A program made the translations under genes and the position numbers. The notes under the pieces are model-generated. The model did no database searches and was not told the DNA's origin. It was given only the letters and a program-made list of their open reading frames with translations. This document shows positions 3,597 to 63,740 of a stretch of DNA of 64,000 nucleotides, piece by piece. This DNA is from Sphagnum compactum (Eukaryota). The stretch is taken from positions 4,402,001-4,466,000 of the forward strand of contig OZ234494.1 in NCBI GenBank assembly GCA_965153455.1. The letters run 5' to 3'. Within the stretch, counting starts at the first letter, position 1; each line of letters starts with the position of its first letter.

Positions 3597-3658
<62 letters not shown>

Positions 3659-26620: not shown

Positions 26621-27502
26621 GGTAGTGTACTGGTCTGATATATTATGGTTTGATTATGTTGATGCAATTCAACAAACTTTGAAGAGGTCTCTCCTGTTCT
26701 TCAAGAAAACAAAACCGTGTTATAAAACATGCAACAGGAGTTACTGAAAACTGAGGATGAATGTTCTGATTGTTTAGGCCTTTGTCTTCCCAGCAGATCG
26801 GATTGAGACTGTGTTTGGACCTGTGTACATTGGATGAAGTACAGCCTTTGAATAGTGTGAGATTGAGTTTAAACCTGTGTACACTAGATGAAGTAGAGCT
26901 TTAAAGTGAGACTGAGTTTGGACATGCAAATATGCACAGGATACACTGGTGTCCAAGAGGTTTTATTAAGGAAAATGAGTACATGTGATTCACAAGCCGC
27001 AATATTAGTTCAAGTGGTGATTTGAATAGTCCCTCACTTTATACTGTCCAAATTTTCATGTTTATGGGTGGGGATGGGAAGATGATTAACACTATTGGAT
27101 GTGGTAAAACACCAGGAGATGCCAAAGTAGGGGTTATGGGTGGAGATGCTTAAATATCCAATAGTGAACAAGGAAAAGGTAGTTATTATTCCCATGTACA
27201 TGATGTATCTAGATGGAAACATCTGTTGCCTTCATAAGCTTAGGATTGTGTCTAGATGGAAACATCCATTGCCCTTCACAAGCTTAGGATTGATGAGCTT
27301 AAACTCCATGTCACAATTGTGATACAAGTTGGAGCTAGGGTTATCAAGCGCCTCTTCACTAACTAGGTGTCAAGAGTTTTAGTTTACTCACCTAGTTAAG
27401 TCTTAGAAATGGCAAATGCAAGATGGTAATACTTTTTCTACCATTACCTAGTGTTGACAAGCAACAAACATGCCATGTAACGGTCACAGTTTGCAAGAAT
27501 GC

Positions 27503-27990
27503 TTAAAGGATATGTTCAGGGTGCAGGAGGCCCCAACCACTACCCTATATATAGGCCTCTATGTCCTTTAGGCATAGATGCTTGCATATACAGGGACATG
27601 CTAAAATGAAATAAAAGCTCTTTCCTTCAGAAGCTTGTTGCAGCTTGAATGAGGATACTGTTGACTTTTTTGATTAGCAATGTCTCTTGAGTGCTAGCCA
27701 ACATCACGTCTGAGTCTTCCCATTGCTTCCGGAAAGGCAACAGAAACTCAGGACGCAGATTGTGTATAATGGTTTGCCCAAGTTTTTTGGGAAGATTATT
27801 ATATGCTTATCTACACCCACTGTTGGGAGCTGATGAACTCAGTGGGTAGTCATGGCAGCTCGTCACTGCCGTTCGTGATGAAGGTGATGGTCTGTCACTT
27901 TGTGAGCGACTCTCATGAGGTTATGACTGCACTCATTGTCGTGTTACCCTTAATTGTTGTTGTGGAGATTTCTCTGCAACTTCATCGATC
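27503..27990 (+). mobile_element. Non-LTR retroposon (SINE/LINE-3'-end-like) copy A, the longest copy
   Basis: Flanked by a 13-bp TSD, tttgcaagaatgc (27490-27502 and 27991-28003). Homologous to five other copies in the window. Confidence 0.85.
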
Positions 27991-29338
27991 TTTGCAAGAA
28001 TGCCACTTACATTCCCTCTCATTACTTTTGTCTGTGAGCAATGTGTGTGCATGAAGCAAATTGGGAGAGAGTGTTAACTTCAACTACAACTCTGGCTACA
28101 CCTTTGGATAATTCTACTTCAAGTCGTCATCTTTAATTGCTTAAAAATTTTAAGAACCTCAAGAACTTTTCATAAAGTGTAAAGAGCAAGACTAGCATTG
28201 CAAAAGAGAACAAAACTCAAAATTTGAGTTTCATTCGCAACACATTGAAACAACCCAACCTTTGAAGAAGTTGAACTACTAATGATTAGGTCAGCTCAAC
28301 GCTGAAAGAAATGTTTGTCACATTTTGATTTGAGCTTTTGGATTTGATAAACTTTTGTTCTTTTCATGATTATTTTGTGTAAGAAGTAAGAACCTTACCA
28401 TGCATCAACAATTCTAAAATGTGTCCACAAGACCACCTTAACAACTGAAATCAACAGGCAGAAGTACAAAGTTAAAAAACCAATCGATTCCCAATCCAAT
28501 TAAAATCCAATCCAGTTAAAAATCCAATTTCGCAACATCAAGTACAACACCTTGTTCATTGATAAAGTCTTGAGTACAAATAGACATCTAAAATGGACTC
28601 AACACTTTCCAATCACCTTTCAAAGATTTGCAAATTTCACCAACATCATTTAAATAAACCTAAAACTACTCTTCGTATAATGGACAAGGAAATAAAGTCA
28701 ATAATGGCATCCATTGACATTAAATTTAGCTACAAATTTTAATAACAACATCATCTCATCTAACACCTAAACCAAGTCCCACCAACAAATGATGCATTAT
28801 TGGGTTGGGCCCAATGTGCAACTGCTAACTTTCTAAAGCCTCACAATGACCCATTCATCTTGTTAGAATCAGAAGGTGGATTGAACAACCAGATGTGGAG
28901 TTATGCACTGTGGAGGATCAGCCACTGAAGCTGATGAGATCAAGGAGAAAGACTACTGCACAAAGAAACAGGTGACATTGTGTGCCTGATGAGCACACTA
29001 GAAAGCAACAGGTGAACTCATCTTATAGTGTGTGAACTCAAAATCTTTATGTCATAAAACCATGGAACTTCAAGTGCTAAATTGAACATACTGTAACAAA
29101 AGAGGCTGTGGCTATGGGAGAAAAATAGTAAGTGATCTGTGGCAGCCAATCACCTGGCAAATGAGATCACCCAAGTCTCAATGTATACTACATCCTCAAA
29201 TCATTTGGAAAACAGCAATTACTCACACATTCTAAGAAAGTTTGAACACCAGTGCATTTTGGTGTACCAGCTGAAAAGGTGACTTACGAAAGGTGCCCCC
29301 CAAATCCTCCAAGTGATGGCCCAGCTGAATGCCTGAAT

Positions 29339-34418
<5,080 letters not shown>

Positions 34419-35419
34419 CTTAGTAGCCCCCAGTGGGTTGGGTTTTTTGGTTATTGGGTTGTCTTCCACCCCCCCCTCCCTCCGACTGCAGAAACCAAAA
34501 AAAATCGCGCGTCTTCTCAAACACCCAATAGCTGCTGCAACAAACAAATGCCTTGCAAACGACTAGTTAACAATTCTTCCTAACTCCAGTTCCACCATTC
34601 GTACCGCTAAAACAATTCTCCAAGATTCCGCTTCTTCTTAGAATGTGACTAGATTCAGTCAATATGCCCACTCATATTTGCTAGTTAATAATATGAATAA
34701 AAACTAATGGGAACAACTCAAGGTCTTCAATTAAGGACTTCTATTATTTATTTGGTTCATTGTTTAATGTTCAATTTTATTATTATTAAGAACTAATCAT
34801 GAACAGCACAAGGTTTCCAATAAGGACTTCTATTATTTAGTTGGTTCATTGTTGATTATAGTTGTGTACTTTCCATTTTATGCTTGGATTTTAAATGATG
34901 ATAACCATGTTATTGCCAAGGATTATAACATAAGTCCTTCAAGCTTGGAATATGAATGAATTAAGTTGGAAAAAAACTCTAATTCTTTCAAAAAAGAGCT
35001 TGTTGCCAATTTTTGGATAAGGGCTTTTGCTTGTTGAACATGATGATGTGGCACTTTAACCAAAATTTGATTGATTGTGTGATTGTGTCCTAACATGGTT
35101 TGTCTGTTGTGAAGTTAGTCATCTATCATTAGTTAGATTACTGACTATGATGACATGGTAATCCATTGTGACATAGAGTATGATTAGTGGAGTTGACATG
35201 GCAATGGCATTGTGATTAATTATGTGATTAAATGTGTTGACATGGCATGACAACATGGCTTTTTGATTGGGTGTGATGATGTGGCATGTTCATTATGATT
35301 AAGGTTATGATTGAATGTGACGATGTGGTATGTCCATCATGATTAATCATTTGATTTAATGTGGTGAGCTATAGCCTAACATTTTGGTTGTGGGCTTGAG
35401 TTACTAGCCCTAATCCAAC

Positions 35420-35990
35420 ACAATGCAATGGTGGTAATCAACTTGGAGGATCCTAATGTGTGGATTTAGACATGTATAGAACAAGCTACTTTATTTCGAT
35501 GTGTTATTCCTATGGTTATGGAGAATTTGGTAATTACTTAACATTGGATACATTACATTATGCCATTATTCGTCAAGGTAGTTCTTAATTTTGAATTTGT
35601 AAATTCAAACTAAAGGATTATGTGTACCTGTAATAAACAACATCAACTATTTTGGATGTGATTATAGGACGTGTTATTTTTCGTGTGTGGAAGATTTTAC
35701 TTTCTAGAGTGTTATTGTTGGAGGGTTGAGATGGTTAGACATGGAAGGACCATGTGCGTAATTGTGCATCATAGTATTTTCCCAATGTGAATGGCCAAAT
35801 TGACCCATCTTTAATGATGATTCTTGTTGGCCTACATTGTATGTTATGCAAACAATCTTTAGGAGTTGTCGTTATGTTCATTTGCAATCAATGTTTCCAA
35901 GGCTAGCATATGGGATGTCTTATGCCACCCTTGGAAACCACCCTTGGAAAGTTAATTGGCAAATGATTTTGCCCTTGGTGCACCGAGTAG
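35420..35990 (+). mobile_element. Decayed LTR-retrotransposon (Ty3/gypsy-like) pol 3' remnant with a PHD finger
   Basis: Broken frames give LLLEG..WKDHVRNCA, then CMLCKQ..MFICNQCFQG*HMGCLMPPLE..FCPWC, a C4HC3 PHD pattern. Stops are present. Confidence 0.6.
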
Positions 35991-37880
35991 ATTTAGTTTT
36001 TAAGGTTGGATAGAGAACTAACCTCAATGCTTTTTTTCATGGTGATTCATATTTGGTTGGGAATTTGAGGGATTGTAGTTAGGCTACTAATAATGGGTTC
36101 ATATTTGCACTTAGCTTATTAATCTATTCACTTCAAAATCAAGTGTTCATCCATGATGGATTTCCATAAAGTAGTTCAACATTGTTATTTGGCTTAAGAG
36201 AACTTTAGCCCCAAATAAGGGGGACAATTTAGACATGGTGTACCAGTTAGAGTATTTTCATGTTATGTTTTGTATGTAGGATGATAATGATAGTTGTAAA
36301 TGTTAACATAGGATCACATAACAACTATCATCTATGTTAACTACTTCGTTAAATGCCAATTTGTTAAAGATAAATCAAGTTAATTTAACTGTTTGAATTT
36401 TTATTTTGAATTGGCTTTAAGTGTGAATAAGGTTTAAGATATTTTGTGAGATGCGATATAATCCGAGTTTTTATGATTTCAAATCAATTTTGGTGATTTA
36501 ACATGCCAACACACTTCATTGTTGTATGCAAGTTTCTATTTGTTTTGTGCACGATTAGTTACTACATTTTTTACATGTAAATTTGTCAAACTTGGATTCC
36601 TATTTTCATTGCAAGTGAATGACTATTTTGGTTTGAACATGATGTACCATTCAAAGTATTTTCATGTTATGTTTTTGTATGTGAGATGATTATGGCAGTT
36701 GTAAATGCCAATGTAGGAATGCACAACAAGATATTGAAAATATCCTCAAATACGATGGAAAAACTCTTTAAAAAGACATAGATTCAAAATGATGTCCTCT
36801 CATGCTTATTTAGTTAAGAATGCACTAAATAGATTCCAGTTTAGAATCATTGAAGTGACGAGTACAACTTATGGAACCTCAAGTTGTTACACCTGAACTA
36901 GCTTCAGTCAGTCATCATCATTCAGCATCACTGGAATTCAGCTAAAACACCATTACATGTTCTTAGTAAACTATTGTATGTAAACAAGGTATCAAAGGTG
37001 TAAAAAATTCTGATATTTTACATCATTGGTAGGGGAATAGGCAAGCATATAGCTTTCCTTCACCATCACCCATGTTTTTTAAAACATATATATGTTACAT
37101 CACTCTGTGCCCCAACAAAACATTTTTGGATTTTCAAACTTCATTACTCAAGGCAACAGCTCTGATCTTCACACCTTTTGCTAGGCAATAGTGGCAATGC
37201 ACATTAAGTTGGAGATGATCAACCATGTGTATTTACCACAATAGTTTCTTCCCAATCTACTTTACCTACCCTGAACTCAAGCAGTGGGTTACATTGATCA
37301 GGCAACAATTCAGTATTGGAAGTAATGCATCTGTCCAGTAAAACTTGGCCACCTCCATGTTATTGGACACAAACTAAGGGAAAGCATCCTAATATTAATA
37401 AAATGAAACTTATATGATACTCCCACATCTTGTTTCCAACAACTCAAACAAAAAAATGAAGAGTCAGAAGCAAACAAGCCCTTTTAGTACCTTAAGTGTA
37501 CATTATCAACTCATCCCTTTGGTGGTTGAATCTAGGTAGCAACCTGAATGGCTGAAAGCAAGAAACTTCATCTGCTAAATAGACAATGTAGCATAGTGAT
37601 TCATACTTCAATTCCTAGCTCATCAACAACCAAAGGAAAGGCTGACAATCAGGATAAACTGCAGACATCCAATCTTGGAAGTCATCAAAAGACTAAAAGC
37701 ACCAGGATTTCTGATATAGTGGACTCATTTGACATGTCACTTCACTTCTCTTTTGTTTCCCGCAGTGGAACAACTGTCTCATAGCACATTTGGACCTGTG
37801 AAACCATCTTTTACAAAAAGGATATATCCTAGCACTGTTGTCATAGAACAGCCTAATGTGCGCATTCAACAGACATTATA

Positions 37881-40800
37881 CTATCGGAACAAGGGTGGCA
37901 ACACTGCATGTGAGTCAATGTCCAGCTGCTCCAAAGTTCTGCAGGCATGCAGTTTAAACTCATCAGTTGATACTTATTGTGGATGAGCCAATTCCAATTG
38001 TCAAAGCATATACCATGCACTTGTCAATAATTCCTCATGAAGAGAAGGAAAAGATAAATTAATATACGCTTGGCATTGTCTATTTTCAAGGGGTGGTGTC
38101 TGTGTGTAGTGTTCCATTACAGAATGCCCAAATAATGTGCTGAAATGGGATACCTTTGAAGGATAACAAAGTGTACCTGCAGACATTGTGACCTTGTTCT
38201 AATGAGCTGGCCACAAACCACAAGCGCCGTAGTGCTGATGTTTCCATCTGTATGAAAAAACCATTGCTGTTGCTTGCCTTCCACTTCCTTGATCCTTGAC
38301 CTTTCCACACCTACCCACACAATGTCTCTTGTTGAAGCATGTGTTGTGGGGCCTATCCAGTAGCAATATTCCAACTTAAACAGTCAGCTCACCACAGACA
38401 TTAGCTTTAGCATACCTGAGGAAATGCGATGGCTTTTTTGGGAACAACAAGGACAGCAGCCATTGATGAAGATTCAACTGCATATCGTCGCAGAAAGTCT
38501 GCACAACTGTTCACTGTATCTGGAGACTCAAAGGCCTGCAAAAAAACTTCAGTGTGAGAAATCTGGGAGGGCCCCTGAAGCACAAAGGAGCAATTGTTGA
38601 TGCAATGGGACACATGAGCTATTAAAGAAATACTGGAAAAGGAAATTCAGTTTGATCGGGACATTGCAATGATTGCAGCACAGAAACCAGTCCAACAGCA
38701 ATTATATAGGATTGAGAGAACCCAAAACAAAACCTAAGGGTAGACTACCTTGTCAACACCAACAAGTGGAAGAAACTCTTTTGAAGTATCCTTTCCCACA
38801 CAAAAGCGTACCCCAGCATCCACCTTTCCATTACTGTCATTCCATTCCTTCATGGAGGACTCAATTACTTCCTTCACAAAACTCCGGACTTCCTCACTGG
38901 TTCCTGGAGGAATAGCTCCCTGCAGCACCTGTATCACAAGGATCAAGATGACAACCTCATATTTCCAGTTGTTCAACAAAACCCAGATACCTTTTGATTC
39001 ATCAAAAAAGTAACATAACCTCTAATGTAACATCCGAGCTCTCTATGTACATCAGTGTACCCCATAGAGTGGGTCAAGATGCTCTCCAAGATAAAGCAAG
39101 TAGAGAGTCACAAACTACAAGCTCCCTGATTGGTAGTGATTCAACCATCAATCTGCAGGTAAATAGATAAGTACCACATCCAACTGCTGGTCTTTGTGTG
39201 TTGTTGCAGATTGGGATCCATTTACTTTCTCTGAATGCTTGTCAGATACTGCTGCTGATTTTGATCGCTTTTTCTCTCTCACCAGTTGTGTCAACCTCTT
39301 TATTTTTCCAGCAACTTCAGCACTCTGAGGGTTCTGCTTCAAGGCTTCATGATATGTTGCCAGTGCCTACACCCAAGTTCACATGTTTTACCACTGATTG
39401 CTAGCAGATAAACTTTGGTGCGTTGAAAACACCCACCCTGCTTGAAGTGTTTAAACATAAGAGATGGATTTACAAACTATGACAACTGCAATAAAAAGTT
39501 CAGGAAGTATTGATTGTCACCATCAACTTTGCTACTGGTAGATTACCTCTTCAAAACGTTCCATCGCTTCCAACACACATCCTTTCCTGAAATAGCCCTA
39601 ACACAGAACACCATTCACTCTGCTTCTATTAGTCCAGTGTACAATCCTCCTACCAAAGCATGAGACCTTATCCTCAGATAACAATCCGAAAAGCTTGAGC
39701 AGGGGTGGGGGGTTGCAAAATTAACAAGCAGGCAGGAAATAGGACTCCATGAGTGGAAAATAGACAGCACCTTCTCCCATGTAGGTCTGAGTTTGATCGT
39801 CATTTCAGCGTCTGCGAGTGATTTTGTCAACTTAACTAAGTTTAAGAAAGCAGCGGATCGGTTGCTGCAGAGACACACAACATCACACACATAGATCTGT
39901 GTTAGCTCCATTACTAGATTGAGAGTCCAAATGTGTTTTTCTGCATAACCTAATTGTACTCCAGGTAGAACTGCTTTACTTGCTTGCTTTATTTGTGCCA
40001 CTCTAAAGAGATTACATGTAAACTTCAAATTATGTGAGGGACAAAAGGATGGTAAGAACCGATGGACTGATTCAGATGCAGCTCCAAAAGCTACACTAAC
40101 TAAATTCATCTGAGAACCACAGGTCCAAGAGACAAAAGTAATAGCAAGTGACAGACAGACTTCATGTATCCACATGATGAGAATGGCTATTCTATTTTAG
40201 ACTTTCCAGACAATATTTTCTTGTCAACTATAATTTGTCAAGCTTCAACCATTAAAGGCATGCAAACAACCAACTTTGGTGCAGAAGGAAAAGAAGCAGA
40301 CCAAAAATGTACACTGTCAAGAGTAAGTTACTGTCTGTTCAGCTTAAGGGCTAATTCCTCTATGCAGGCGGTGATGGCTATTTAGTAGCCCTTACAGAGA
40401 CTGCCAGTCTGATTGTCTCTAGGGCTGATGCTTTCATGGGAGAGGTGACTAATTTCTAAGCCGTCACCAGGATAACTTGGTTGCCCTAGTCTTTCTACCT
40501 GCCAGCCCCCAGAAAACCAAAATTGTGAAGAAGGCCCTGAGTCTCTGCACTTTTGGTGACTGATTGACGTACTTGCTTCCATTGCAGCTGGATCGGCTAC
40601 AAGAGGCAACGTCTCGCATGGCATTTGCGGGATTTGAATCAATTAACACTCAACAGAAATCGATAAACTCTCTCACCCGAATATTTGGTCGATCCCTAAG
40701 ATTGTAAAAGATGCCGACCTGAGAGTAAACAACACTTGATCATCCGAGCCAACACGAACTCACAGCCTGTTTGTTCACTTGCGGGAATAATCGTAACCTA

Positions 40801-41115
40801 GCTTCTTACCACTCCAAGCAAAGCAAAGGAAAGAAAAAAAAGAAAAGAAGATTTCCAATCCGGATCCTGAGCAACAGCATGTGGTGACGGAAGAAGACCT
40901 AATTGTACACCATACAACAAACCAAGAAGAACGAGGAAAAAAGGGTTTTTCGACCAGACCACAAAGAAAATGCACCTGTAGAGTGCAGCATTTTCAGGAT
41001 CCGCTTTGATGGCTTGCGTGTAGACTGCTGCAGCTTTGAGGTAGTTTTTCTCCTTGAAGAGCGCATTCCCTTGCTCTCGCAGCGAAGGCACCGCTGCTGC
41101 TGCTTCGGCCTCCAT
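37881..41115 (-). CDS. Tetratricopeptide-repeat protein (N-terminal STI1/HOP-like TPRs, plant-type C-terminal domain), multi-exon
   Basis: LREQGNALFKEKNYLKAAAVYTQAIKADP..YSNRSAAFL..WEKGYFRKG, then AFESPDT..C..FLR and WKGQGSRKWK..GFFIQ. Ends LPPLFR*, stop at 37881-37883. Confidence 0.9.
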
Positions 41116-41832: not shown

Positions 41833-42136
41833 ATCATCACAAACTTAACATTCAACAATTTAGTAATGAAAATCCTGCGAAGTTCACTCATTCACAAGTT
41901 TTTATGTTTCATGCACAAGTATTATGCACTAAAAACACATTTGACACATGAATGTATAAGATGATACAAAATTCGTTCATTCATAAGTTCATAGTTCATT
42001 TATCATCGCATGTATTCATGTGTTTTAATAGGTTTTCAATGCACAATGATTCATGTGCAAAATGCATGAATCTGTCAATGAATAAACTTCACACAATTTA
42101 CATTACAAAATTGTTGAATGTTAAATTTGTGATGAT
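41833..42136. mobile_element. MITE-like imperfect palindrome of about 300 nt
   Basis: The termini atcatcacaaacttaacattcaacaatttagtaatg and cattacaaaattgttgaatgttaaatttgtgatgat are reverse complements (2 mismatches in 36). Degenerate pairing continues inward. Confidence 0.7.
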
Positions 42137-47800: not shown

Positions 47801-47943
47801 ACTGGAGGTTATTAAAAAAATATAAATCAGATAATCGCCCAACACTGGTGGTGACTGGTGATGCACCTCACTAGTTTAGAAGTTTTGGCTCAAACTGGTG
47901 ACAGGATCGAGATGTTGAGACTGGTGAAATACCTGTAACTTTG

Positions 47944-50511: not shown

Positions 50512-50554
<43 letters not shown>

Positions 50555-51648
50555 TGATGGATTTTCTTCTGTAGACTGAACGCGAATCTTGTGCACCTCA
50601 AGAAGTTCTATGTCTGAAGCGTAGAAACTGACCAAGTCAAAATTCAAATAGAGAGAGAGCCTTTTAAAGGTATATGAATGTCCAGAATTTGCATTTCTTG
50701 CTAACCCTGGACACTCCGCCACCCACGATCCCCGCAGAAACTTGACCACATTTCTTGCTAATCTTGGATACTCCGCCAAGATCTCCGCAGGAGCTTGGAC
50801 CTCTCACAAAATTTCATGTTAAATCCTGTGCAGGATTTTGTGCACAACTACCAAATCGCAAAAAGGATGATGATACCTTGAACTTCGCTTTTACATAATG
50901 TTCGTTATACATGCTTCCTAATGTTGGATAGTCCGCCACGATCCCGCAGAAACCCGACCTCTCAGAAAATTCATTTTAAATCCCGTGTCAGATTCTGTGC
51001 GCAACTACCAGATCGCAAGAAGGATGATGGTACCTTGTACATTGCTTCACACAATGCTCGTCATAGATGCTTGCCTAATCTTGGACACTCCGCCACGATC
51101 CCCGCATAAACTCGACCTCTCAGAAAATCTCATGCTAAATCCTTTGTCAGATTATGTGCACAAAGTCTACCAAACCGCAAGAAGGATGATGATACCTTGA
51201 ACATTGTTTTACACAATGCTCGTCATAAATGCTTGCCTAATCTTGGATACTCCGCCACGATCCCCGCATAAACTCGACCTCTCAGAAAATCTCATGTTAA
51301 AATCCTTTGTCAGATTCTGTGCGCAAAGTCTACCAAATCGCAAGAAGGATGTGATACCTTGTACATTGCTGTACACAATGCTCGTCATGCATGCTACAAT
51401 TTGAAAGTTTTAGGATCGGAATTCGTGGTCTGTGTCACCTGTCGACGGAGAGGCTGGTTGTGGAAAGTCGCATAAGGAGCTGTCTGCGAATTAGAAGCAA
51501 TGTAGGAAGATCCGATAGTAGTGGCACGGCCAATGTTGGGCGACACTTGATCTTTCATCCATGGCGCTGCTGCCGATGTCCCCTCCCGCCTTGGCTCATA
51601 CCTGGTCTTATCGTGTAATGTGGCAAACGGTGCTTTCCGAGAACTCAT
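47944..51648 (-). CDS. Uncharacterised repeat protein with exon-encoded PW-x-K/R-D ... (T)AP(F/Y)AT / P(F/Y)GT modules
   Basis: Mostly AG/GT-bounded, apparently phase-0 exons at about 51648-51439, 50484-50365, 50120-49962, 49384-49250, 48856-48707, from 48321, and 48009-47944 each translate to related motifs. Some junctions are uncertain. Confidence 0.7.
50695..51390. repeat. Tandem minisatellite of about 160 bp, about 4 copies plus a partial, in intron 1 of the repeat-protein gene
   Basis: The anchor ctaatcttgga(c/t)actccgcca recurs at about 50758, 50918, 51075 and 51237, with a partial at 50701. Confidence 0.92.
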
Positions 51649-52988
51649 CTTCTCGCCACTTCGTTCTTGTCTTTCGATTACGTGAATCTCCGCACAAATT
51701 CAATTCGTGTCTGCTTCTCTAACTGGAGACGGGCAATGAAAAAAAACCCAAAGTCCCCTTGCGAGAAACCAGAATTCTATAATTGCCACTCCCGTTCCAC
51801 AAATTGTTGGCAAATGGGTGTTTAGTGGGGAGGAGTATGTACAATGGCAGAGTTGGGGTGAGGGACGTGAAAAGGGAGAAGAGGGGAGCGGGCAGTTGGG
51901 ATTTACCACAGCACCAGCTATATTCACACTTGGAGATGGCATGCCCACTCACTCACTACGATTTTCAGCTTCAAACCATTGAGTTAGCTTATATCTGCAA
52001 TCGATCATGTGAGAATTATCTGCGGTTGCTCATATGAAGACCCAGATACAGTCCTTCACCGCTTCTTTCCCCTCATAAGATCATGTTTTCTGCCCAAGCA
52101 TATTCTTTTCCAAAAGAGCAGACCAACATTCAAGCTCCACTCTACCTCCTAGCACGCAAAACCAGTTTTGGGGGGGGGGGCGGAGAAGATTTGGGACCAG
52201 CTTGTGCTTCTCACACCTGCACAAATCTTTGATTTCTTCTCTGCTAAGGTGGCTGCCGAAGTCGCGGGCGTGATGCATCGGCGGATTTGGGTTTTGGACA
52301 AAAGCATGTCGGAAATCTTCTGTGGAAACATCATACCCCTTTAGACTGTGCCTACTCACGCAACATCGAGAACCGGCGAAGAGGGGACTCGTGGACCCAA
52401 ACCGTAAATGTCAGGAGTTGAAGTCATGAAGGTCTTCTGCCATATATGTGGCTTCTGGGATAACTTACAAGCTAATGTAATCCGGAACCCTATCCAAAAG
52501 ATAAGGACTTTCCATCTGCGTGTGTGATGTCTTCAGTTTGGCAATTTCCAATTGGTCTGTAGGCTTTTGCTTTGAGAAATTCTTTGAGCTTGAACATTCT
52601 CGTAAGAAGAATTTCAAGGTTTTGTTTGAGAGGTGGTTTTATTTCTTTGTTATGTTCTCAAACATGTTGATCACACACAGTTGTGGTGTCAGTATGACTT
52701 CTTCAGAAGTCACAAACTTTGCTTGCGTACGAAATCTTGTTGGAGAGTTTGAAATTCTCAAGCATTGCAATGGAGACAACTACGTCACCAAGAATTGAGT
52801 GTGCAACAAGTATTGACAATGTGGTTGAGGTTATCTGCCAGGTACAAAACTTGTCATTTCCTAAAGGGCAAGGAAAGACCTGTCTTTGAGCGAAATGCTG
52901 GGATTTGTTTTTCATCTCCTTTTGTTTCGTTTTATTTTTTGACAAGGAGAGAAGAGAGGGGATTACTGTGGTTCTAGTGAGCTTGCAG

Positions 52989-53363
52989 ACAGATAGAGAA
53001 TTCCAGTGGGGCTTGCAACAAGTGGGCCAGTGTATGGCAGACTTTCACAAGTAAGGCTCATTTGCATCATTGTGAAATGGCATTTCACATCTTGTTGTGT
53101 CTGCAATTTATTTCAGATGGCAGATGTGGTCATCTACTATGCAAAACAAGGCATACTTTGCACATTTTTCAACTAGTCAGAGCTCACTGCTACAGGTTTT
53201 TAGATAAGTTTTTCAACTAGGCAAATGTCAGAGACATGCCAGACATTGCGATTGAGCTCCCACTGCAGCCATGGATAGCATTTCAAACAGATGGACTGAT
53301 CATGCTTTCGGACATCCTAACTCCACTTCCAGCACTCAGGATTGAGGTTGATGTGAAGTGCAA
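52989..53363 (+). pseudogene. HEME: Uroporphyrinogen decarboxylase (HemE/UROD) unprocessed pseudogene fragment, two exons
   Basis: Exon 52989-53050 gives LQQVGQCMADFHK (like LMRQAGRYMADFRK). The exon from 53196 gives [46 protein letters not shown] (like [18 protein letters not shown]). It has an in-frame TAG and frameshifts, and no downstream HemE exons were seen. Confidence 0.8.
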
Positions 53364-54022
53364 GCATTCTTTCACCTATTTCCAGGCTGCAAGCCGTCAA
53401 CAACTGCCAGTAATTTTGAATTACTGTTGTCATCCTTTGCTGATGACAAATCTTTGTGATGGGTTACAGATTTTCCTGGGAGAGAAGTGGTAGTTTCCTG
53501 TTTTTCAATCAGTTGACCTGATCATTAACTCCCAAAACTTGCTTGTTGTTGCACTCATCAAGGCAATTGTTTCACAGATTTCTGCTCATGGTTGCAGGAC
53601 AATAAATGACCCAGACCAGTCATTGCCATTTTCAAGGGAAATATTGTCATCACTGTGACAGGAAGTGGAGGGGAAAGCAACTTTGATAGGCTTTGTTTGG
53701 GCTCCATGGATGCTGGCTGGAGATGGCTGCGGATGGAGGGGAGGGGGTAGGGGGGGCAGCCCCGAGTCTTGTGAAGACCAAAACTATCATGCTGCAGGCT
53801 AAGTTTGTAAGATCAAAGCATCAAAGAAATCAAAGGTTTTTTTCTCTGATTTGTTTTGCGTACTGAAGTACCTTGACAGCGCCTTCATCATCCTGAGAAG
53901 CCATGGTGGTGGTGTCTGTGGCATTGATTATTTGATTGATCACCACTCTTCTCATAGCACAATCGTTTGTAAATAAGCTTACAGACGTTGGTAACTATCA
54001 GCAAACTTCTAGCAGAACAGCA

Positions 54023-54173
54023 TATATCTATGAAATAGCAGAGAAATCTCCACAACAACAATTTGAAGGTAACATGACAATGCATGCAGTCATAATGTCA
54101 TAATCTTATTGAGAGTCGCTCACAAAGTGTAAGACCATCACCTTCATCACAAATAGCAGCGACGCGCTGCCAT
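54023..54173 (-). mobile_element. Retroposon copy D (5'-truncated)
   Basis: Perfect 16-bp TSD, ttctagcagaacagca, at 54007-54022 and 54174-54189. Carries only the 3' 151 nt of the family. Confidence 0.85.
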
Positions 54174-54657
54174 TTCTAGCAGAACAGCACAAACCACAAT
54201 TCTACCAATTCATACTTTCTATTGGGACATCCCCTAATAGAACTGCGCATCATACTCAATTATCAAGAGCAGAAATTTGGCAGAAGAGTTCTGGAAGAAG
54301 CAGAAACACAACACACATACGTCGCACCCGTGTGCATCACTCAATAAAGGCACTGCTTGAACAGTTTCGGCATCAGTCCCAACAATTGCGCGATCTGATA
54401 AAGCTGTTAGAATCGCTACTGGCAGATGAACAAATACCAAAAGTGAGTAGACCAGTTGCGGGCAGCAAGCTCACAAGCAAATATCATTGTCTGCAAATAT
54501 CATTGTCACAAATCCTATCAACAACGGCACCAAATGCCACAGCAGCTGTAATGCTATTTCCTTGAACTTTGCCTTCGGTATCTTTCTGCAACACACTGAT
54601 ACAGAAATTTAGAGAAAACTTTCGTTTTGCGCTCGTCAGTAGGGTTTATTGATCTTC

Positions 54658-54667
54658 AAACCCTAAA
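54658..54667 (+). promoter_or_regulatory. Telo-box (AAACCCTA) upstream of the ribosomal protein gene
   Basis: aaaccctaaa lies about 80-90 nt before the mS34 ATG. Telo-boxes are known in plant translation-gene promoters and leaders. Confidence 0.45.
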
Positions 54668-54747
54668 CATGCGTTCTAAGGGTTCTGTCGCCACAGACAG
54701 GAAAGGAAGTTGGGAAGTGAAGGATTGACACCTGAGTGTAGGGGAAA

Positions 54748-55556
54748 ATGGCAAGCGCGCATACGACTATGAAGCTCCTGCGGCGAGCGATGGCAACGGC
54801 AACGGAAGCCGCCGTCAAGGTTCCGTTGAAGAAACCAGGGGAAGGACATCCTAAAAGGAAAAACTTGTTTGATGTGGTGAAGCTGCTGCCTAACTGGGGT
54901 GTAGGCAGCAAGGTTGCCAAATCGCATTGGCGTCCAGAGACATTCTACAAAATCACGGATATCAAACTGTACAAGGTATGCAATTAGCAGGCCTCTTGGT
55001 CACGTAGAAATGTGAGATTGCAGCAAGAAGTTACGACGCTGTTAGGGGACTCCAAGCAGGATCACTCCAAGTTCGTTTTTGGTTCATCAACAATCTTTTG
55101 TTGACGGTCGTTATCATCAAACTCCAGACATGGAGTCTGCAGTCACTAAGCATGCAATTTTGCACGGTGGGATTCTAGGTTTTGTTGCATAGAGATGATG
55201 TTGAGAGCTTGGTTCTTTTGCGTGCAGGATCCAGGCCATGGAGCTGCGTGGGGAATCTATCATGAGGCAGGCAAGCCCCTTTCACCGTATGTTGTTGTCT
55301 GTTTCTAATTACAAACTATCAGTTGCAGACCAGCAGCACAGAGTGGTGTTTGTTCCTAAGTATTGAAGGTCCAGCTCAAAGAGTAACATTGCTCAATTGA
55401 ATTCTGAGTTTGCAAAGAAATGTGTTATGCACAGGTGTAGAGGCAGGCAGGCTGCAGAAGATAGGTGGTGCTAACAAACGGTGTTGGAAACACATTGAGG
55501 AGGAGACTTCACAGACTTGGAGAACAGTGGAAAAATCTCAGGTAGCACAAGGATGA
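54748..55556 (+). CDS. MRPS34: Mitochondrial ribosomal protein S34 (mS34)-like, 3 exons
   Basis: Exons 54748-54975, 55228-55270 and 55435-55556 give KRKNLFDVVKLLPNWGVGSKVAKSHWRPETFYKITDIKLYK|DPGHGAAWGIYHEA|G..KIGGANKRCWKHI. Confidence 0.85.
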
Positions 55557-56637
55557 GATGAAGCTGTTTACTGTACTGGAGAATGTGGAAATCTACACCA
55601 AAAGGGTTGCAACAGGCAGCTCCAAGATCATTAAAGAGATCAAGTGGCAAATTCTGCACATTGCAATGAAATGCAGCTGATGGGTTTTGTGCTGAGTGCC
55701 AATGCTATTGACAACTTCACATTCAGTGCTTAATCAGCAGGAGATGTGTGGATATGATTTAGTCAGGGATATGGTGACAATGCGATACATGCCACAAGGT
55801 CTTATGCACAAGCATATTGCATTTTCCTTCTGGACAGGTTGTCTGCCAAGCAAAGTGTGATTAGTGCAGAATTAGTTCCAGCAAAGCAGCTTCTTGTAAA
55901 CTGTTATTGAATATGCAAATCATTCAGTGCATTGTTGTTATAGACAAAGAGAGTTTACTTGTCTACCTTCTACTCCGTGTTATGTAGATTTGTATTGAGG
56001 ATGTACAACTGATCACTTTAATCTGCTTGATGCTAATAACTATAATTGTTGCAATCATTGAGTCTGTCACATATTACCCTCTTGTGATTAACATGCCCTC
56101 TGCTTCTTACTGATCACTTTTTACATCTGTGTGTCCTGAGGTTGTGTTGTTTTTGCAGAGTTCATCCGTCTTATCCCTATGAACAGGTGCCTCATTGGAA
56201 ATTTGGCAAACTGTGAGAAGAGGTGCTTGAAAGCTCTCTCAAGTTTGGTTGAAAATGTTTGTCAGAATCTATCCTTAACCTTGATGACATGCTGTCATAG
56301 TCATTCTCTCAAAAAATCCATGGAGCCATTTTTATTCCTGCACCATGAGTTTAGGGGAGCCTCTGTGTTTCCAAGATGGCTCATAGTGGGAGGATCTTCT
56401 ATCCCTAGTTAACTCTCTTTGACATTGTGCAAAGAGCAGTGGTCATATGTCTAGCTTATGCTTTGAAATTTGTGGTCAGGCCAGAAAATTCTTGGCAATT
56501 AAATGCAATTGTGTATATGAGCAGTTATGGTTTTCTTGTGTAGCTTTCTTTGCCTTGACCAGGAAATGACTCAAGACTTCAGGTCTTACGCATAACACCC
56601 TTCCTTTCATCAGCACCTAATGACCTTCCAACAGGTG

Positions 56638-56817
56638 ACCTGCCATTGGGAGCTGATGAAGTCGGTGGGTAGTCATTGCAGCTTGTCACTGCTATTTGTG
56701 ATGAAGGTCATCATGGTCTGACTTTGTGGGTGACTTTCATATGGTTATGATTGCACTCATTGTTATGTGACCTTCAAATTATTGTTGTAGAGATTTTTCT
56801 GCAACTTTGTAGATATA
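56638..56817 (+). mobile_element. Retroposon copy E (5'-truncated, diverged)
   Basis: ttgggagctgatgaagtcggtgggtagtca..gagatttttctgcaactttgtagatata matches the family core and 3' end. TSD not clear. Confidence 0.8.
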
Positions 56818-56964
56818 ATTAGAGGTGATTATGTTCCTAAGATCATTCCTAGGTTGATTTAAGTGTAAGGTAAAGCCCCAGGGTGGGGGCATTCCCTTAA
56901 AGGCCCTCATATTTAACAAACTTATCTGCTTCACCCATCATAAATCATAAAGCACAAGCCAAAG

Positions 56965-59900
56965 TGTTATCGATACTAAACATTAGGAGTTTGCTAGTAT
57001 TCCAAACAAGTTACAACTAGTGAATGCTCGCAGAATACCAAAGTCCTTTGGTATACACTAGTATAAAGACTCTGATTCTGAGATATGTGAAAAACAGTTT
57101 TGCACATATTCAGTAGAACAACCCATTGTACATCTTTCATGCTTTTCCAATATGGTAAGAGCTTTGAAATTTTCTGTAATAGGTTGTGTAACATAAAGAT
57201 ATGTTCTTATAATGAATAAAATTGATTTCATAATGAAAGAATTGGAATTATCAAAAACAATTCTTCAATCCTTGGTCAAGTTAGTTTCACTAAAATGCAT
57301 GAAGTGATTTATCAATAATCCAAATAGAGTAAAACATCAAAATGTCTCAGTTGATATTAGCCGCATTCCCAAAATTGGTGGAACATATTTCCATGTTTGG
57401 AAACATAGACTAGCATTATTGTTCAAAACACAAAAGCTTTGTGTGTTTGATCAATAGCTAATGGAACTAAAACCAAACCAATGACACCCACATTTGCACA
57501 AATAAAAATAAGGGCTATTGCAATTCCTATGATATGGGTAGATAATATTAATAATTGGGAGGAGTGAAAAACACTCTCAATGATTAATAATTGTTTAGAC
57601 AACAAAATGGTCTCACATGTACGATTATCTAAGACAACAACCCATGAAGCATGTCTAGAATTTAAGTAAATTGTTTAAGTCATAAGATTTGTTTTTAACG
57701 ATAAAATGCTAACACTTCAAGTAAGAGAAGATCATAGCATAACAAAACACATACCTACCTTCAAATCCCTACTTGAACAACTTTGTTACAATAGGAGCAT
57801 TGATTTCTAACAATGAGACTATTTTTCCCCTTATGAAAAATATGCCCTTTAGTTTTCAAAACCTCTTAAATTCAATGACAAAGCAATCTAATCTTACTTT
57901 ACAATCTCTAATCACATATTTAGTATTTTTTTAAAATAATGAAAAGCATCAATTCTATGTCTAATAGTGGTACAATCTGTTTATGTAGTCTAAAAGAAAT
58001 CACAACAAGGTCAAAAAATATATTTGAATTCATTCATCATGACATTTGTGATTCTTTACAAACACACACATATGGGGTGGCACACTATTTTAAAGTTTTA
58101 TTCAAGATACATTACAATCTATTTGCTAAAACATGAATCAATTTTTTTTGAAAAAATTCAACATTTCAAGAAACAAGTAGAAGCGGAAACCAATTAAAAA
58201 AATCAAAATCTTAAGGTCCTATGATGGAGGTGAATATAAGTCAAATGATTTTAATATCTTTTGTTAAGAACATGATATAAAAAGGCAATTTAGTATTTCA
58301 TATAACCTTCAACAAAACGAAATAAATGAAAGGAAAAATAGAACATTGATAGGGGTTGTTTTAGTAATGTTTTTCCATATTAATATTCCTAGAAGTCATA
58401 TTGGGGTGAAGCTTTAATTATTGCCAATTATTTACAAAACATGACTCCAATTAAGACTTTAAATGAGAAGACACCTTTTGGAGTATGGTCAAGAATTAAA
58501 CTTACATTAACACACTTAAAAGTATTTGCCTCCTATGGTTATGTTTTAATGCCAAAAGAAAATAGACAAAATCTTGATTCTCATTCCATAGTTTGCATTT
58601 TCTTAAGTTGTAGTTAGGAATTTAAAACATATTTATACGGAGATATTAGAAGGTTAATCATGACATTTTAGCACAATTTGGTATGAAAATTATTGAAACA
58701 TATTTATGGGTTAAGATAATCTTCTTGAGCATGGCGTGAAAGATTTGACACTTTTCTCCATCACATCAACTTCAAACAAATGGAAGTTGATCCAAATGTT
58801 TATATCCAAGTTTTATGAAAGTGTGAACTTCATCATTTTGACTATCTATGTTGATGATGGCATTGTGATGATTCCCAACCTCATTTTAACACATGAATTA
58901 AAGACAATTATTGAAATTTAGAAATTCGACATGACTTATGAAGATGATATTTGACATGATTTATGAAGAATATTTGATATGTCCAAGTATAACCTTGTTT
59001 TCACACCTCTTAAGGTATGTACAAAATTATCAAAGGAGATGAACCCCAAAATCCAAAAAACAAACCACAAATGAAATCCATTCCATATGTTCAAGTTATT
59101 AACAACTTAATGCATAATAGTGTCAACACATAACTTGATTGTTTTTATATAATCGATTCTTTGGCTCAATTTTTATCAAATCCTAGATCAACGCATTGGT
59201 AAACATTGAAACATACCCTAAGATATATTAAAGCCATTCCAAATGTTGGAACTAGACATCAACATCAAAATGATGGCCACATTTTGTGTAATTTTTGAAT
59301 GTTGATTGGGTTAGTAATAAATAATTTTCAGGTGGTATTTTGACATGGTCCAACAAAAAACAAACTTCAATTGTTTTATCTAGCACAAAATCCAAATATA
59401 TAGTTATATTGAAAACAATTACTACAGCCATTTGGATGTACATGTCACTTCATGAATTTAGTTTTCCTCAAATTGCACCTACAACAATTTACTTTGATAA
59501 TCAAAGTGTTATAACCTTCACAACAAACCTTAATTCTAGAAGTAAAACATATTGACAAACAATGTCATTTCACCCATGATCAAATTTTAGTTAAAGAAAT
59601 CACATTGGTTTATGAAGGTTGTCAACTTGATTTCATACCAATTTGAATTTTTTAAAACATTAAATTAAATCCAAGCATTCATGTTGTGGACCTTTGAAAT
59701 ACTCCATCAATATTTAGCAATTGCCTCTTTTGACCAAGCTAATGAACCATCCATGTTCCCATACCCTTTGTTTTGTTTTAAAATGAGAGATCATATCATC
59801 TCTACCATAAAACATTTGAAATTAATGAACCAATGTGTTCACAAAAGATTAAAAAACCATATTCACAACATGACAACACTAAGTTTAGTTCACTTGGATA

Positions 59901-60862
59901 TAAATATGTGCAAAACAAGGGTGTATGTACTATATGATGGTTCATGTTCAAGAGATACAACACTCCATACAAGTCCTTAACAAGTTTTTTTTTTAAGAGT
60001 CAAAATGGAGATGGTTGATATTTCATAAAATTTTCATTATTGTAATATTTGACTATTAAATTCTCACCCATGTACGAACATTTTAAACCTAGGTCAAAGC
60101 TTATATAAAAAGATGTTGATGTCATTTATTATGGTGGATGCAATTTGCAAACCCCAAAAGGAAAGTCCAACAAAGCTCATTAGAAGGTATTTAATATTTT
60201 TGTTTAATATGCTACCCAATGCAACTTTAGTGCAAGGGGACCTCAAAAGAAAGACAAGTTTACTTCATGGTGACATCGAACAAGGTAGACAACATTATGG
60301 TGGCCACCAAGTTAGGAGAACAAACCATGTAAAACAACTTACAACACCCAAAGGAATGCAACATGTTGTCATAAAACAACAAAATGGAAAAGTGAAAAAA
60401 AAGTTTAAAGGAGGAAACTAACCAAAAGATGATGCTCGTAACTAATATTAAAAATCGATATTATCATTAAAGATTTGAAACTTTTTGGGGTCAAAGCCAC
60501 ACAATCATTTCAAAAGAATATGTAATTCTTTTAAAATTTTGTATAAACACATAATAAAATAATGGTTCTATCAATAAGAAGTCTCAAAAGATTACTCAAA
60601 CACACCTTAGAAAACCATAACACTATTTTTTTTTACATGTACAAAACACTAGTAAAGGAAAGGGAGTGTCAACAATAGTGGGTATTAGTAATATATTAAT
60701 ATTCTAACAATACACAACTAGTGAATACTCACAATATATCAAAGGATATCTACTCTTACACTAGTGTAAGTATAAGGACTTTGATTCTAAACTCTTCTAA
60801 GATATGTGAAAAATAATTTACAAACAAAACAACCCATGTACATCTTTCATGTTTTTCCAATA
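56965..60862 (+). mobile_element. Degenerate Ty1/copia LTR retrotransposon
   Basis: Diverged LTRs of about 190 bp (56965-57152 and 60667-60862), both starting TGT and ending ccaata. PBS-like tggtaagagc at 57153 resembles tRNA-iMet TGGTATCAGAGC. PPT aaaggaaagggag precedes the 3' LTR. Broken integrase (IHHDIC, DGGEY, QQNEINERKNRTL), RT (IYVDD) and RNase H (WSNKKQTSIVLSST) occur in copia order. Confidence 0.88.
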
Positions 60863-62443
60863 TAAAAATTATCATGAACCCAAAATCATGAAGACCCCAT
60901 TTAATTTTGCAACGAATTCAATGTTGTCCTTGATGTTCATCCCTTCACAAATAGGAACACATATTCAACAAATATATACCTATAGTTCAAACTTTTTCAT
61001 AGCAAAAAGGAAAGAATATGGTAACCCTTTCAAAGTTGGGTTCTATAGATTTGTATTATTGTAACAACTAGTTTTTAAGTATGACATGTTGTTTAAAACA
61101 AATAGACATTTGAACACAACTAAATTTAATATGATGATTCTCATTTGCATGGCCATTGAAATTGTAAACCATGAAAAAGGTTGTGAAAGTGCCTACATGT
61201 TGTTAGTTTGTGAAACATTTGAATTAATAATTAATTAGTTAATATTTAACAAATTTTTTATTTAACACATACAAAGATCAAATATGTGTTTAATACATGA
61301 TTAATATGTATCATTAATTGTAATTAAGAATGTAACTAATAACTAATTAATTAACATTTACAGAAATTATATTTGTGATTAATGCCAAGTTAACAATGAT
61401 TGTTCAAAAGATGAGATGTTCAAGATGTTTTTAACGATCGCAAAATGAAACACCTTGTTGGACAATGTAAAATCATATTTAAGCTGGCCATGAAAATATT
61501 GTAGTGTCACACCTAGTTTTGGTGTAAGTTCAAAAAAAATTCCCATAATGTAACTAATAAGGTGTTTTCCAACTCCTTCATGCTTTCTATCCACCACTAA
61601 ATTTTTACAATAGAAATGGAGTATAACATCTCAACCCCAAGTCTCCAAAAACTTGCAATTCTGAAAATGCTTTTATTCCAAACTCCTATCAAATTAGCTT
61701 TCATGATTCTACATCACATGTTTGAAATTGCATTGCAATAAGGACATTCGGAGTATGTTAGATTTTCATTTGAATGAAAATGTGCTTGAAGTTGTGGAAT
61801 GGAAAGCCTTGGGATTTGTGTGGGGTTGTTGTTGATACTTAAAGAAAAAGCCAAAGGTGCAAAGTAATCAATTCATTTGCAATTGCTGGTTGCCCAAGTG
61901 TAAAGAACCAGTATAATAACACTAGAATCATGGTAATCCCAAAGCTTGCCCATTCATTGTCCTCTCTGCCTCAACAAAGGGATGGCAGTGTGTCACCACC
62001 ACCACCTTACACATACGTTGCGTCGTCTGGTATCCTCTCGAACAAGTAAGTGACTTGTCACACACATAATGGCGCTCAAGGATGATAATTATTCAACATA
62101 CTAAATTGAAAACACATGGACGTCAGCAATGGAGAAGCTCAAGTGAATTAGTCCCCTTCTTCTACCAGAAAAATTGTTTCTATGGACTTCACATGACCCT
62201 AAAATGTAGGGTTACCAAACCTTTTAGTTTACACTTTACGTGCTTTTGGCGTAAGCCTTGCGTGCATTTGAAGCTTGGCGGGTTTTGTGAGTAAAGAGGG
62301 ATGTTAAAGAACTGCGATCCAAGCTTTAGTTGAATGTGGAACATATCGGCTGCATCGGGTTCGGAATTCTCGGTATAATTTTGGTCTTTCATTCAGGTTT
62401 TGTCTCCCAGGATTGAGAGACAGAGACACACCTACACACAGAG

Positions 62444-63047
62444 ATGTCACAGTTGCCAGCTTCAGTCGTCTGCTTCCTGATTTTGTGGCTATGGCTACCT
62501 CGCATAATTTTTTTGCATGCCAAAGAGTGTACCAACATTCCAACAGAATACTTCTCTCATTCCCTACGTGCACGTAGCATTCCACAGCAGCAGCTTCATT
62601 ACGCTTCTGCGAGTTTGGATAACCTAGGAAAAACAGATGTGGTCACATCAGTGGAGTCATCTCTCCACGAGGCGGCTCTTTCAAGTTTTCAAGAACTGGA
62701 GCAGAGCAGTGCGGAGAAACTTTTGCCGCAACTGAGAAGATCATTTTCGGAGAATTCTCTCCAAGGGGATTTCTCGGTAGGACAAAATCAGGACGTGAAG
62801 TTTGGCAGATCTAGATCGCAGATTGGAGCGGTTAAGGGAATTTTGAAAGAAGTTTCATTGCACAATGTGAGACTCACACCGGGTTCGCCACAGGCAGTAG
62901 CTCAGGAAACAAACCTTCAGTACTTGTTAATGCTAGATGTGGACCGCATGGTATGGAATTTTCGCAAGACTGCGGAACTGGAAGCTCCTGGTACGCCTTA
63001 TGGAGGTTGGGAATCCCCTACATCCGAGCTTCGTGGCCACTTCGTAG
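62444..63047 (+). CDS. Glycoside hydrolase family 127 / DUF1680 (beta-L-arabinofuranosidase-like) secreted protein, exon 1; the gene continues beyond the window
   Basis: Signal-peptide-like N-terminus, AKECTN, LKEVSLHNVRL, AQETNLQYLLMLDVDRMVWNFRKTA, YGGWE..ELRGHFVG, then a GT donor at 63048. Confidence 0.92.
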
Positions 63048-63093
63048 GTCAATCTTCAACCCTAACCCCAACATAGCTCCTAGCTTCACATCC

Positions 63094-63740
63094 GTTCACA
63101 GTGACTGTTATCTGCCTTTTATCGTTTGTTGAAGTGTCTGTGTAAGGAATTCCTTTTTGCACATTGTGATTTCCTTGTTCCTGTGATGGAAAAGAATCAT
63201 ATTCGTTCACAGTGGCTCTTCTCTGCCTTTTATTGATTGTTTGAGTCTCTGCGTGAGGAATTCCCTTGTGCACAATTGTGATGTTCCTTGATCCTGTGAT
63301 GGAAAAGAATCATATTCGTTCCCAGTGGCTATTCTCTGCCTTTTATTGATTGCTTGAGTGCTAGCCAACATCACGTCTGAGTCTTCCCATTGCTTCCGGA
63401 AAGGCAACAGAAACTCAGGACGCAGATTGTGTATAATGGTTTGCCCAAGTTTTTTGGGAAGATTATTATATGCTTATCTACACCCACTGTTGGGAGCTGA
63501 TGAACTCAGTGGGTAGTCATGGCAGCTCGTCACTGCCGTTCGTGATGAAGGTGATGGTCTGTCACTTCGTGAGCGACTCTCATGAGGTTATGACTGCACT
63601 CATTGTCGTGTTACCTTTAATTGTTGTTGTGGAGATTTCTCTGCAACTTCATCGATCTCTTCATTGTTTGAGGCTCAGTGTGAGGAATTCCCTTGTGCAC
63701 AATTGTGATGTTCCTTGTTCCTGTGATGGAAAAGAATCAT
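63094..63740 (+). repeat. Tandem repeat of about 113 bp (3 units) in GH127 intron 1, with the third unit interrupted by retroposon copy F
   Basis: gttc(a/c)cagtg..tctgcctttta..ggaattcc..cctgtgatggaaaagaatcat recurs from about 63094, 63204 and 63317, and resumes at about 63663. Confidence 0.9.
63359..63662 (+). mobile_element. Retroposon copy F (young, nearly identical to the 3' part of copy A)
   Basis: About 300 nt with only 2 mismatches seen against 27687-27991. Flanked by attg(c/t)ttgag at 63349-63358 and 63663-63672. Confidence 0.88.

Follow-up and report, generated by a model that had tools for sequence, protein, structure and literature searches.

Penelope-like elements (PLEs), as set out in the sections of Craig et al. 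(2021; PMC8557442) that treat their structure, are highly 5′-truncated retroelements which insert by target-primed reverse transcription (TPRT) from a nick of a GIY-YIG endonuclease and give target-site duplications (TSDs) of variable length. Partial tandem arrangements (pseudo-long terminal repeats, pseudo-LTRs) are frequent, sometimes with a tail of 30–40 bp. Naiads and most Chlamys elements have no hammerhead ribozymes, both groups prefer microsatellite targets, (CA)n, (C)n or (TA)n, and the non-autonomous Chlamys derivatives have a 3′ end in common with autonomous families and occur in head-to-tail arrays (PMC8557442). Here we surveyed 64,000 nucleotides of the peat moss Sphagnum compactum (assembly GCA_965153455.1, contig OZ234494.1, positions 4,402,001 to 4,466,000 of the forward strand; this whole stretch is called the window) and analyzed a family of six interspersed repeat copies in it. 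The family is a real one, and its copies most likely stem from a peat-moss PLE, of which they would be truncated 3′ ends.

The hosts given for Chlamys and Naiad elements in the same sections are green algae, Chara, Selaginella (where the elements are endonuclease-less and rDNA-specific) and slime mould, and mosses are represented by just a few BlastP hits to the endonuclease-less PLE-X type (PMC8557442). The land-plant passages of a 2022 review list PLEs in conifers and Selaginella only, and the Dryad PLEs of conifers are there the sole endonuclease-bearing land-plant PLEs so far reported (PMC9033089). In the Sphagnum genome paper the largest repeat class is ‘unclassified’, at 7.8%; the terms SINE, non-LTR, retrotransposon and transposable do not occur in it, and a mention of LINE is possible (PMC9946827). 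A full-text literature search pairing Sphagnum with Penelope gave no paper that was relevant by title.

The copies were tracked in the window by BLASTN with positions 27503–27990 as query and by nhmmer with a profile built from five copies. An earlier note on this DNA (the original prediction) had listed six homologous copies; both programs returned the same six and no more, the next nhmmer match having an E-value of 2.6. The density it had remarked on is likewise as described, with six copies per 64 kb window, all of them within 27.5–63.7 kb. Copy A (27503–27990, + strand, 488 nt) is the longest and is young; it includes the final 34 codons of an element open reading frame (ORF) with their stop, then about 381 nt of 3′ untranslated region (UTR). 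Copy B (30543–30941, − strand, 399 nt) is old and 80% identical to A, and it begins at A position 87, which is 18 nt before the ORF stop. The remaining four copies consist of UTR only. Copy C (33864–34104, − strand, 241 nt) is degenerate, with a 15-nt internal duplication and another insertion, and it reaches the common 3′ end; it was placed by nhmmer (E = 4.5e-20, model positions 225–401) and by pairwise alignment, so that the earlier boundaries of about 33985–34105 have to be moved out to about 33864. Copy D (54023–54173, − strand, 151 nt) and copy E (from 56638 or 56646 to 56817, + strand, about 172–180 nt) are old and 82–87% and 82–83% identical to A, respectively, and copy F (63353–63657, + strand, 305 nt) is young and 99.3% identical to A.

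All six copies extend to model positions 396–402 of 402 and start at six different 5′ points. The fixed 3′ end of the original prediction therefore stands, with its count raised from five copies to six, and the variable 5′ truncation that it proposed is seen in the lengths of 488, 399, 305, 241, about 180 and 151 nt. The young copies end in ...CATCGATC and the old ones in ...ATAGAT(ATA), with the TSD directly abutting. When the ends were read directly, no poly(A), A-rich or simple-repeat tail was present on the copies, as had been claimed, and at most two 4-mers of the form (C/G)AT(A/C) can be made out. A terminal hairpin is predicted at 27959–27980 (+ strand), with a 9-bp stem and an AUUU loop, and stops 10 nt short of the 3′ terminus; the last 169 nt of the element fold better than shuffled sequences (z = −3.1), and a compensatory change at 1 of the 9 pairs among five sequences supports the hairpin weakly. 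In A and F an open frame of 94–128 aa continues up to the 3′ end. Coding capacity of this 3′ part was rejected, and the part is treated as non-coding, because the older copies have indels which break the frame.

One scoring of flanking direct repeats was applied both to the six copies and to 2000 control pairs of random positions, spaced in the same way as the copy ends. Three copies have clear TSDs, matching at 13 of 13 positions in A, 20 of 22 in B and 16 of 16 in D, and among the control pairs 3 of 2000 score at least 13. The TSD of copy A is TTTGCAAGAATGC at 27490–27502 (+ strand), and the identical 13-mer at 27991–28003 directly abuts the element end. The two sides of the copy B duplication (− strand) lie at 30521–30542, which is the 3′ side in the orientation of the element, and at 30942–30963, the 5′ side. 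Those of copy D (− strand) lie at 54007–54022 (3′ side) and 54174–54189 (5′ side, in the same sense), where the final TAG is at the same time microhomology with the element; such microhomology at the 5′ junction is found at copies D and F. For copy F a candidate TSD, ATTGCTTGAG/ATTGTTTGAG, matches at 9 of 10 positions with a score of 7 and is ambiguous, 60 of the 2000 controls reaching 7; it covers the first six bases of the element and stands 5 nt past the 3′ end. Compared with the neighbouring repeat units, the junctions of F show a duplication of 4–10 bp and five extra bases on the 3′ side. For copies C and E the same scoring gave no TSD above chance. Of the four duplications reported earlier (13, 22, 16 and about 10 bp), those of A, B and D are thus solid and that of F is ambiguous. 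A fixed 3′ end, 5′ truncation and TSDs of variable length are together the signature of TPRT, as the original prediction had stated, and the copies arose by target-primed insertion, with 5′ truncation, of the terminal 3′ part of a retroelement, made up of an ORF tail and a UTR of about 380 nt.

The same anatomy leaves hardly any room for an origin other than retroposition, in which the copies would be a DNA transposon or miniature inverted-repeat transposable element (MITE), solo LTRs, Helitron ends or fragments of a segmental duplication. Nothing specific speaks for this origin, the family being merely interspersed and non-coding. Cut-and-paste and LTR elements have short TSDs of fixed length. 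Here the TSDs are of 13, 16 and 22 bp, which argues against both, and no terminal inverted repeats were found in copy A, which argues against a DNA transposon or MITE. The ends of the copies are neither TG..CA nor TC..CTRR and the flanks are duplicated, against an LTR or Helitron origin, and the near-identical copies A and F have unrelated flanks, against segmental duplication.

The copies fall into two age classes, with A and F young and the others old. Between A and F there are 2 transitions over 306 positions, and all remaining pairs are 13–23% different. The CpGs of A are kept at 9 of 9 sites in F, at 1 of 9 in B (seven are now TG or CA), at 0 of 6 in E and at 2 of 6 in D. The near-identity of A and F, the divergence of the other pairs and the loss of CpGs in the old copies together indicate that the family has been active over a long time and, since A and F differ at just 2 of 306 sites, recently too. 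These two copies are separate insertions and not products of a segmental duplication, because both their flanks and their 5′ ends are unrelated.

The ORF remnant in copy A (27505–27609, + strand, 34 codons and TGA) leads to the coding part of the element. Public proteins were searched with this 34-codon stretch plus 18 bases of flank, and the frame matched 15 of 15 candidate public ORFs at 86–97% identity, all of them hypothetical ORFs of 71–206 aa. Several translate the TGA codons of the repeat as W, and these public ORFs are for this reason regarded as translations of other repeat copies. Six public ORFs run together to a ...LQLH(R/G)S terminus and diverge behind it; P0243 and P0244 share one flank, and the five different flanks therefore add five more independent 3′ ends. 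When P0249 was searched against 1.8 billion representative proteins, 67 representatives matched at E ≤ 1e-3, about 20 of them solely in the region upstream of the repeat. This upstream part too is therefore repeated, and its conservation is much higher at the protein level; it is a coding region. In P0249, P0250 and P0258 the frame runs from an upstream stretch resembling a reverse transcriptase (RT) straight into the repeat, and P0285 joins the same two stretches by way of a longer spacer. Since public ORFs enter the repeat from upstream, the window copies are the 3′ ends of a longer protein-coding element.

Some further results concern the reach of these searches. Pieces of the upstream ORF are absent from the window, where tblastn of 74 public ORFs matches only copies A, B, D, E and F. 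The bases 27436–27502, tried as an extension of the ORF upstream of A, proved a chance likeness, with E = 12 and twelfth rank in the window when scored with an independent profile built without the unit-bearing members. In a collection of genome contigs holding no eukaryotic genomes, a scan for exact 20-mers gave 0 matches, and of the 50 matches to a degenerate pattern from the ORF alignment in the same contigs, 0 were confirmed by tblastn. P0308 (718 aa, repetitive, bacterial-type) was set aside as a chance match. Dozens of the public hypothetical proteins among P0241–P0307 are spurious translations of the moss repeat.

The continuity of the ORF also bears on the suggestion that the family is a stand-alone, non-coding, SINE-like retroposon (SINE, short interspersed nuclear element) of about 0.5 kb, having a promoter of its own and a constant 5′ end and mobilised in trans. 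In 9 of the 15 first-round ORFs the residues are shared just upstream of the start of A and then diverge, and many representatives begin with M[FY]CIQVV, as if many copies had their start at about the same place. The subfamily of A and F is also without some 30–60 residues which P0285 and P0312 carry between the RT-like and ...KGYVQG... stretches, so that it is possibly a non-autonomous deletion derivative. Within the ORF-tail remnant, at 27546–27563 (A positions about 44–61), lies an imperfect hairpin containing TATATATA, about 30 nt upstream of the start of copy B; it is possibly an internal promoter, unless the spacing is a coincidence. Against a SINE-like origin, P0249, P0250 and P0258 read through the apparent start from the RT-like ORF, the residues flanking it are homologous among contexts, the ORFs with an initial M merely reflect an in-frame ATG, and the six window copies start at six points. 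No tRNA, 5S or 7SL head was found. The absence of RNA polymerase III (Pol III) boxes in the original prediction agrees with 0 tRNA genes by ARAGORN and 0 Rfam families at gathering score in the window, hammerhead ribozymes included; with copy A as query at E ≤ 5, Rfam gave only five sub-threshold snoRNA/miRNA rows of chance level (E 0.2–3.9) and no hammerhead. A SINE of about 500 nt with a defined 5′ end was rejected, as the upstream stretch is itself repeated and ORFs read through, and the SINE-like origin as a whole is very improbable. Of the earlier alternative, a SINE or a LINE 3′ UTR family (LINE, long interspersed nuclear element), the part that survives is that of a 3′ end, here belonging to a longer, protein-coding retroelement. 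The A/F lineage may nevertheless be a non-autonomous deletion derivative of that element, moved in trans.

The class of the parent element was considered next to its coding part. To our knowledge, PLEs in general have no poly(A) tail. With a PLE as parent, neither a poly(A) tail nor Pol III boxes would be expected. A suspected likeness of the upstream ORF fragments to the C-terminus of a PLE RT led to a comparison with printed sequences. The fragments were compared by eye, with no program and with the best-looking pair chosen, with the Chlamys RT regions that are printed in the supplement of Craig et al. (PMC8557442). In this by-eye comparison P0284 has an ..ADD.. motif, then [LI]YPxT and then FLD, in the order found in Chlamys-4, -5a and -7 of Chlamydomonas, and the distance from ADD to FLD is 43 aa in P0284 versus 45 aa in Chlamys-7_cRei and Chlamys-5a_cRei. 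From the [YF]DK..QP motif on, P0312 can be aligned by eye to Chlamys-7_cRei without gaps at 19 of 75 identical residues (25%); for this hand-picked pair the binomial tail is 7e-8, 5e-6 or 1e-4 at a per-site chance identity of 0.06, 0.08 or 0.10. Chlamys-10a has, again by eye, a ..SYP... motif where the moss ORFs carry ..GYP.... The moss ORF stops a few dozen residues after the RT-like region, as in the printed Chlamys elements, and the RT is for that reason taken as the last domain. Judging from these likenesses, the parent is probably a PLE of the Chlamys-like branch with its RT as C-terminal domain, to which we give a rough probability of 0.6.

Further points of likeness to Chlamys and Naiad PLEs, as these are described in the sections cited, are the 5′ truncation, the variable TSDs and the lack of a hammerhead, and with Chlamys in particular the ORF stop shortly after the thumb region, together with the ADD/[LI]YPxT/FLD spacing seen by eye (PMC8557442). 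A possible further likeness is the joining of units head to tail. In P0261, P0281 and P0273 the 3′ terminus of one unit is followed after 8–9 residues by the start of the next, and P0266 has the identical unit start behind a stretch which is not recognisable as a 3′ end. The junctions in the first three are consistent, as indirect evidence, with pseudo-LTR or tandem structures, which would match the Chlamys arrangement. MRC1 and the non-autonomous Chlamys derivatives of Chlamydomonas are, in the same sections, short, non-coding and recently active and have their 3′ end in common with an autonomous PLE (PMC8557442); the A/F subfamily, being without part of the ORF tail, is likened to MRC1 by this description and not by sequence.

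A parent of LINE type would account for much of the same anatomy. The copies would then be 5′-truncated 3′ ends of a LINE with an APE-type endonuclease, the RT of which recognises a 3′ hairpin stringently (as in RTE, L2 and CR1) and needs no poly(A). The common 3′ end, the 5′ truncation, the TSDs of 13–22 bp and the junction microhomology fit this equally. In the sections of Nishiyama and Ohshima (2018; PMC6007223) on plant RTE LINEs and Au-like SINEs, these are tail-poor elements with 5′ truncation, TSDs and a conserved hairpin near the 3′ end, comparable to the hairpin predicted here 10 nt from the 3′ end. The ends ..ATAGAT(ATA) in the old copies and ..ATCGATC in the young ones are also readable as a very short tail of 4-mer repeats. 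On the other hand, RTE elements have (GTT)n at their end and Au SINEs have T-runs there, and neither tail is seen in the window copies; Au SINEs carry Pol III A and B boxes, and none are seen here (PMC6007223). The TSDs of RTE and Au elements begin with T about 10 nt past a T-stretch (PMC6007223), a signature which is not evident in the window: T is the first base in two of the three clean TSDs, a clear T-run at position −10 is present in none of them, and three are too few to judge by. The upstream ORF fragments show, by eye, the [YF]DK..QP pattern of the printed Chlamys PLE RTs, a point which is not decisive against a LINE because there is no Pfam RVT_1 match either. The recurrent head-to-tail junctions are stated, in the part of Craig et al. 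concerned with them, to be unseen in LINE TPRT (PMC8557442). We regard a LINE parent as the less likely reading but a serious rival, and the LINE label of the original prediction probably gives way, by the same visual comparison, to an upstream ORF resembling the C-terminus of a Chlamys-type PLE RT.

Several observations weigh against the Chlamys-like PLE that we prefer. The assignment comes from an alignment made by eye on a pair picked by the authors. In Pfam, 16 of 18 ORF fragments had no match to an RT or any other domain (RVT_1 included), and the other two had one irrelevant sub-threshold row each, with E of 0.66 and 0.18. A profile search of PDB sequences with the upstream ORF gave 0 matches at E ≤ 10, the ESM Atlas returned unrelated glycosyl-hydrolase clusters (recognition 1647, below the useful level), and an AlphaFold2 model from a 21-sequence alignment reached a pLDDT of 55, with two helices confident. 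The upstream ORFs are mutually 50–70% identical and interrupted by stops and frameshifts, and because they are so divergent and broken, their link to the window subfamily hangs on four ORFs. The public ORFs are taken to be Sphagnum DNA solely by their 86–97% identity to the window. A GIY-YIG endonuclease, a CxC motif and a full-length copy were seen neither in the window nor in the public ORF fragments, and an IFD is likewise not seen, unlike in Chlamys and Naiad elements; a Pfam scan of the 144 stop-to-stop ORFs of at least 75 aa in the window gave no RT or endonuclease domain. None of the six window copies has a pseudo-LTR, an adjacent tandem or inverted partner, or a tail of 30–40 bp, and in being solitary they differ from PLEs as described in the sections cited. 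Finally, the three clean TSDs are complex sequence and not microsatellite, although Chlamys and Naiad elements are described there as favouring microsatellites; the insertions in the window went into ordinary genic DNA and, in one case, a 113-bp minisatellite.

We propose the following order of steps, and infer with it the type of endonuclease which makes the nick. The RNA of the element would have no poly(A) tail and would end in ...CAT(C/A)GAT(C/A), and it would be reverse-transcribed directly at the chromosomal nick by TPRT. The second strand would be cut 13–22 bp away, giving flanking duplications of variable length. The RT would mostly stop early, or the cDNA would join at microhomology, which would produce copies with a common 3′ end and differing starts. 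The six copies are independent insertions of one Sphagnum family, mostly ancient and partly recent.

It is also possible, at somewhat less than even odds, that peat mosses harbour a large, diversified and active lineage of endonuclease-bearing Chlamys-like PLEs, inserting genome-wide and also into introns. If this is true, it would be the first such land-plant lineage not explained by horizontal transfer, and a part of the ‘unclassified’ repeat fraction of Sphagnum (7.8%) could be these PLEs. The Dryads of conifers, as the review portrays them in its passages on land plants, are of the Penelope/Poseidon group, carry their endonuclease at the C-terminus and are attributed to horizontal transfer, in contrast to the ORF of the moss element, which stops after the RT-like region (PMC9033089). 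A PLE parent would widen the range of genome-wide PLEs in land plants from conifers to bryophytes, where the land-plant PLEs described in the sources cited are those of conifers, attributed to horizontal transfer, and those of Selaginella, rDNA-specific and endonuclease-less. With a LINE as parent, the copies would belong to an ordinary undescribed repeat family. The family would also give a name to part of the ‘unclassified’ repeats in the Sphagnum genome paper, as far as its repeat figures are described (PMC9946827), and it accounts for dozens of spurious public hypothetical proteins, some of which read TGA as W.

Copies of the family are placed in and beside genes. Copies B and C sit, on the coding strand, in introns of one DnaJ/DnaJ-X gene (30119–34562, − strand). 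A GH127-like gene carries copy F in sense orientation, inside a 113-bp tandem repeat of its first detected intron. Through such copies in or beside genes the family adds to the intron content and possibly to transcript variation. The tandem repeat, with a period of about 111–113 bp, occupies 63086–63359 and 63660–63740 (2.5 units upstream, 87% matches) and is split by copy F.

The window is gene-rich nuclear DNA of a plant, and its genes were assigned from the Pfam scan mentioned above. On the + strand they are ATG6/Beclin exons at 4.4–7.5 kb, a quinolinate phosphoribosyltransferase at about 9.9 kb, a kinase resembling DAG kinase at 22–26 kb, a uroporphyrinogen decarboxylase at 53.2 kb, MRP-S34 at 54.7 kb and a GH127-like arabinofuranosidase from 62.4 kb; on the − strand are the DnaJ/DnaJ-X protein at 30.1–34.6 kb and a TPR protein at about 41 kb. 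One long exon of Beclin shares 99% identity with a Sphagnum tenellum protein, the next best matches being those of Diphasiastrum and Physcomitrium at about 60%, which places the window in a Sphagnum genome. Just upstream of ATG6/Beclin, at 3300–3900, there is a long (TC)n/(GA)n microsatellite with A/G-rich runs.

Other repeats were also noticed in the window. A non-coding tandem array at 50754–51395 has a period of about 160 bp and units that are 81–86% identical, and it is unrelated to the retroelement family. Direct repeats of 102 bp, 96% identical and about 880 bp apart, are present at 16185–16286 and 17068–17169, and between them is a near-perfect palindrome of 35 bp (16811–16845); together these may be a small terminal-repeat element. 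A large imperfect palindrome of about 300 bp, with a 70% match to its own reverse complement, lies at 41833–42136 and borders a very AT-rich block at 42–46 kb, in which the GC content is 24–26%.

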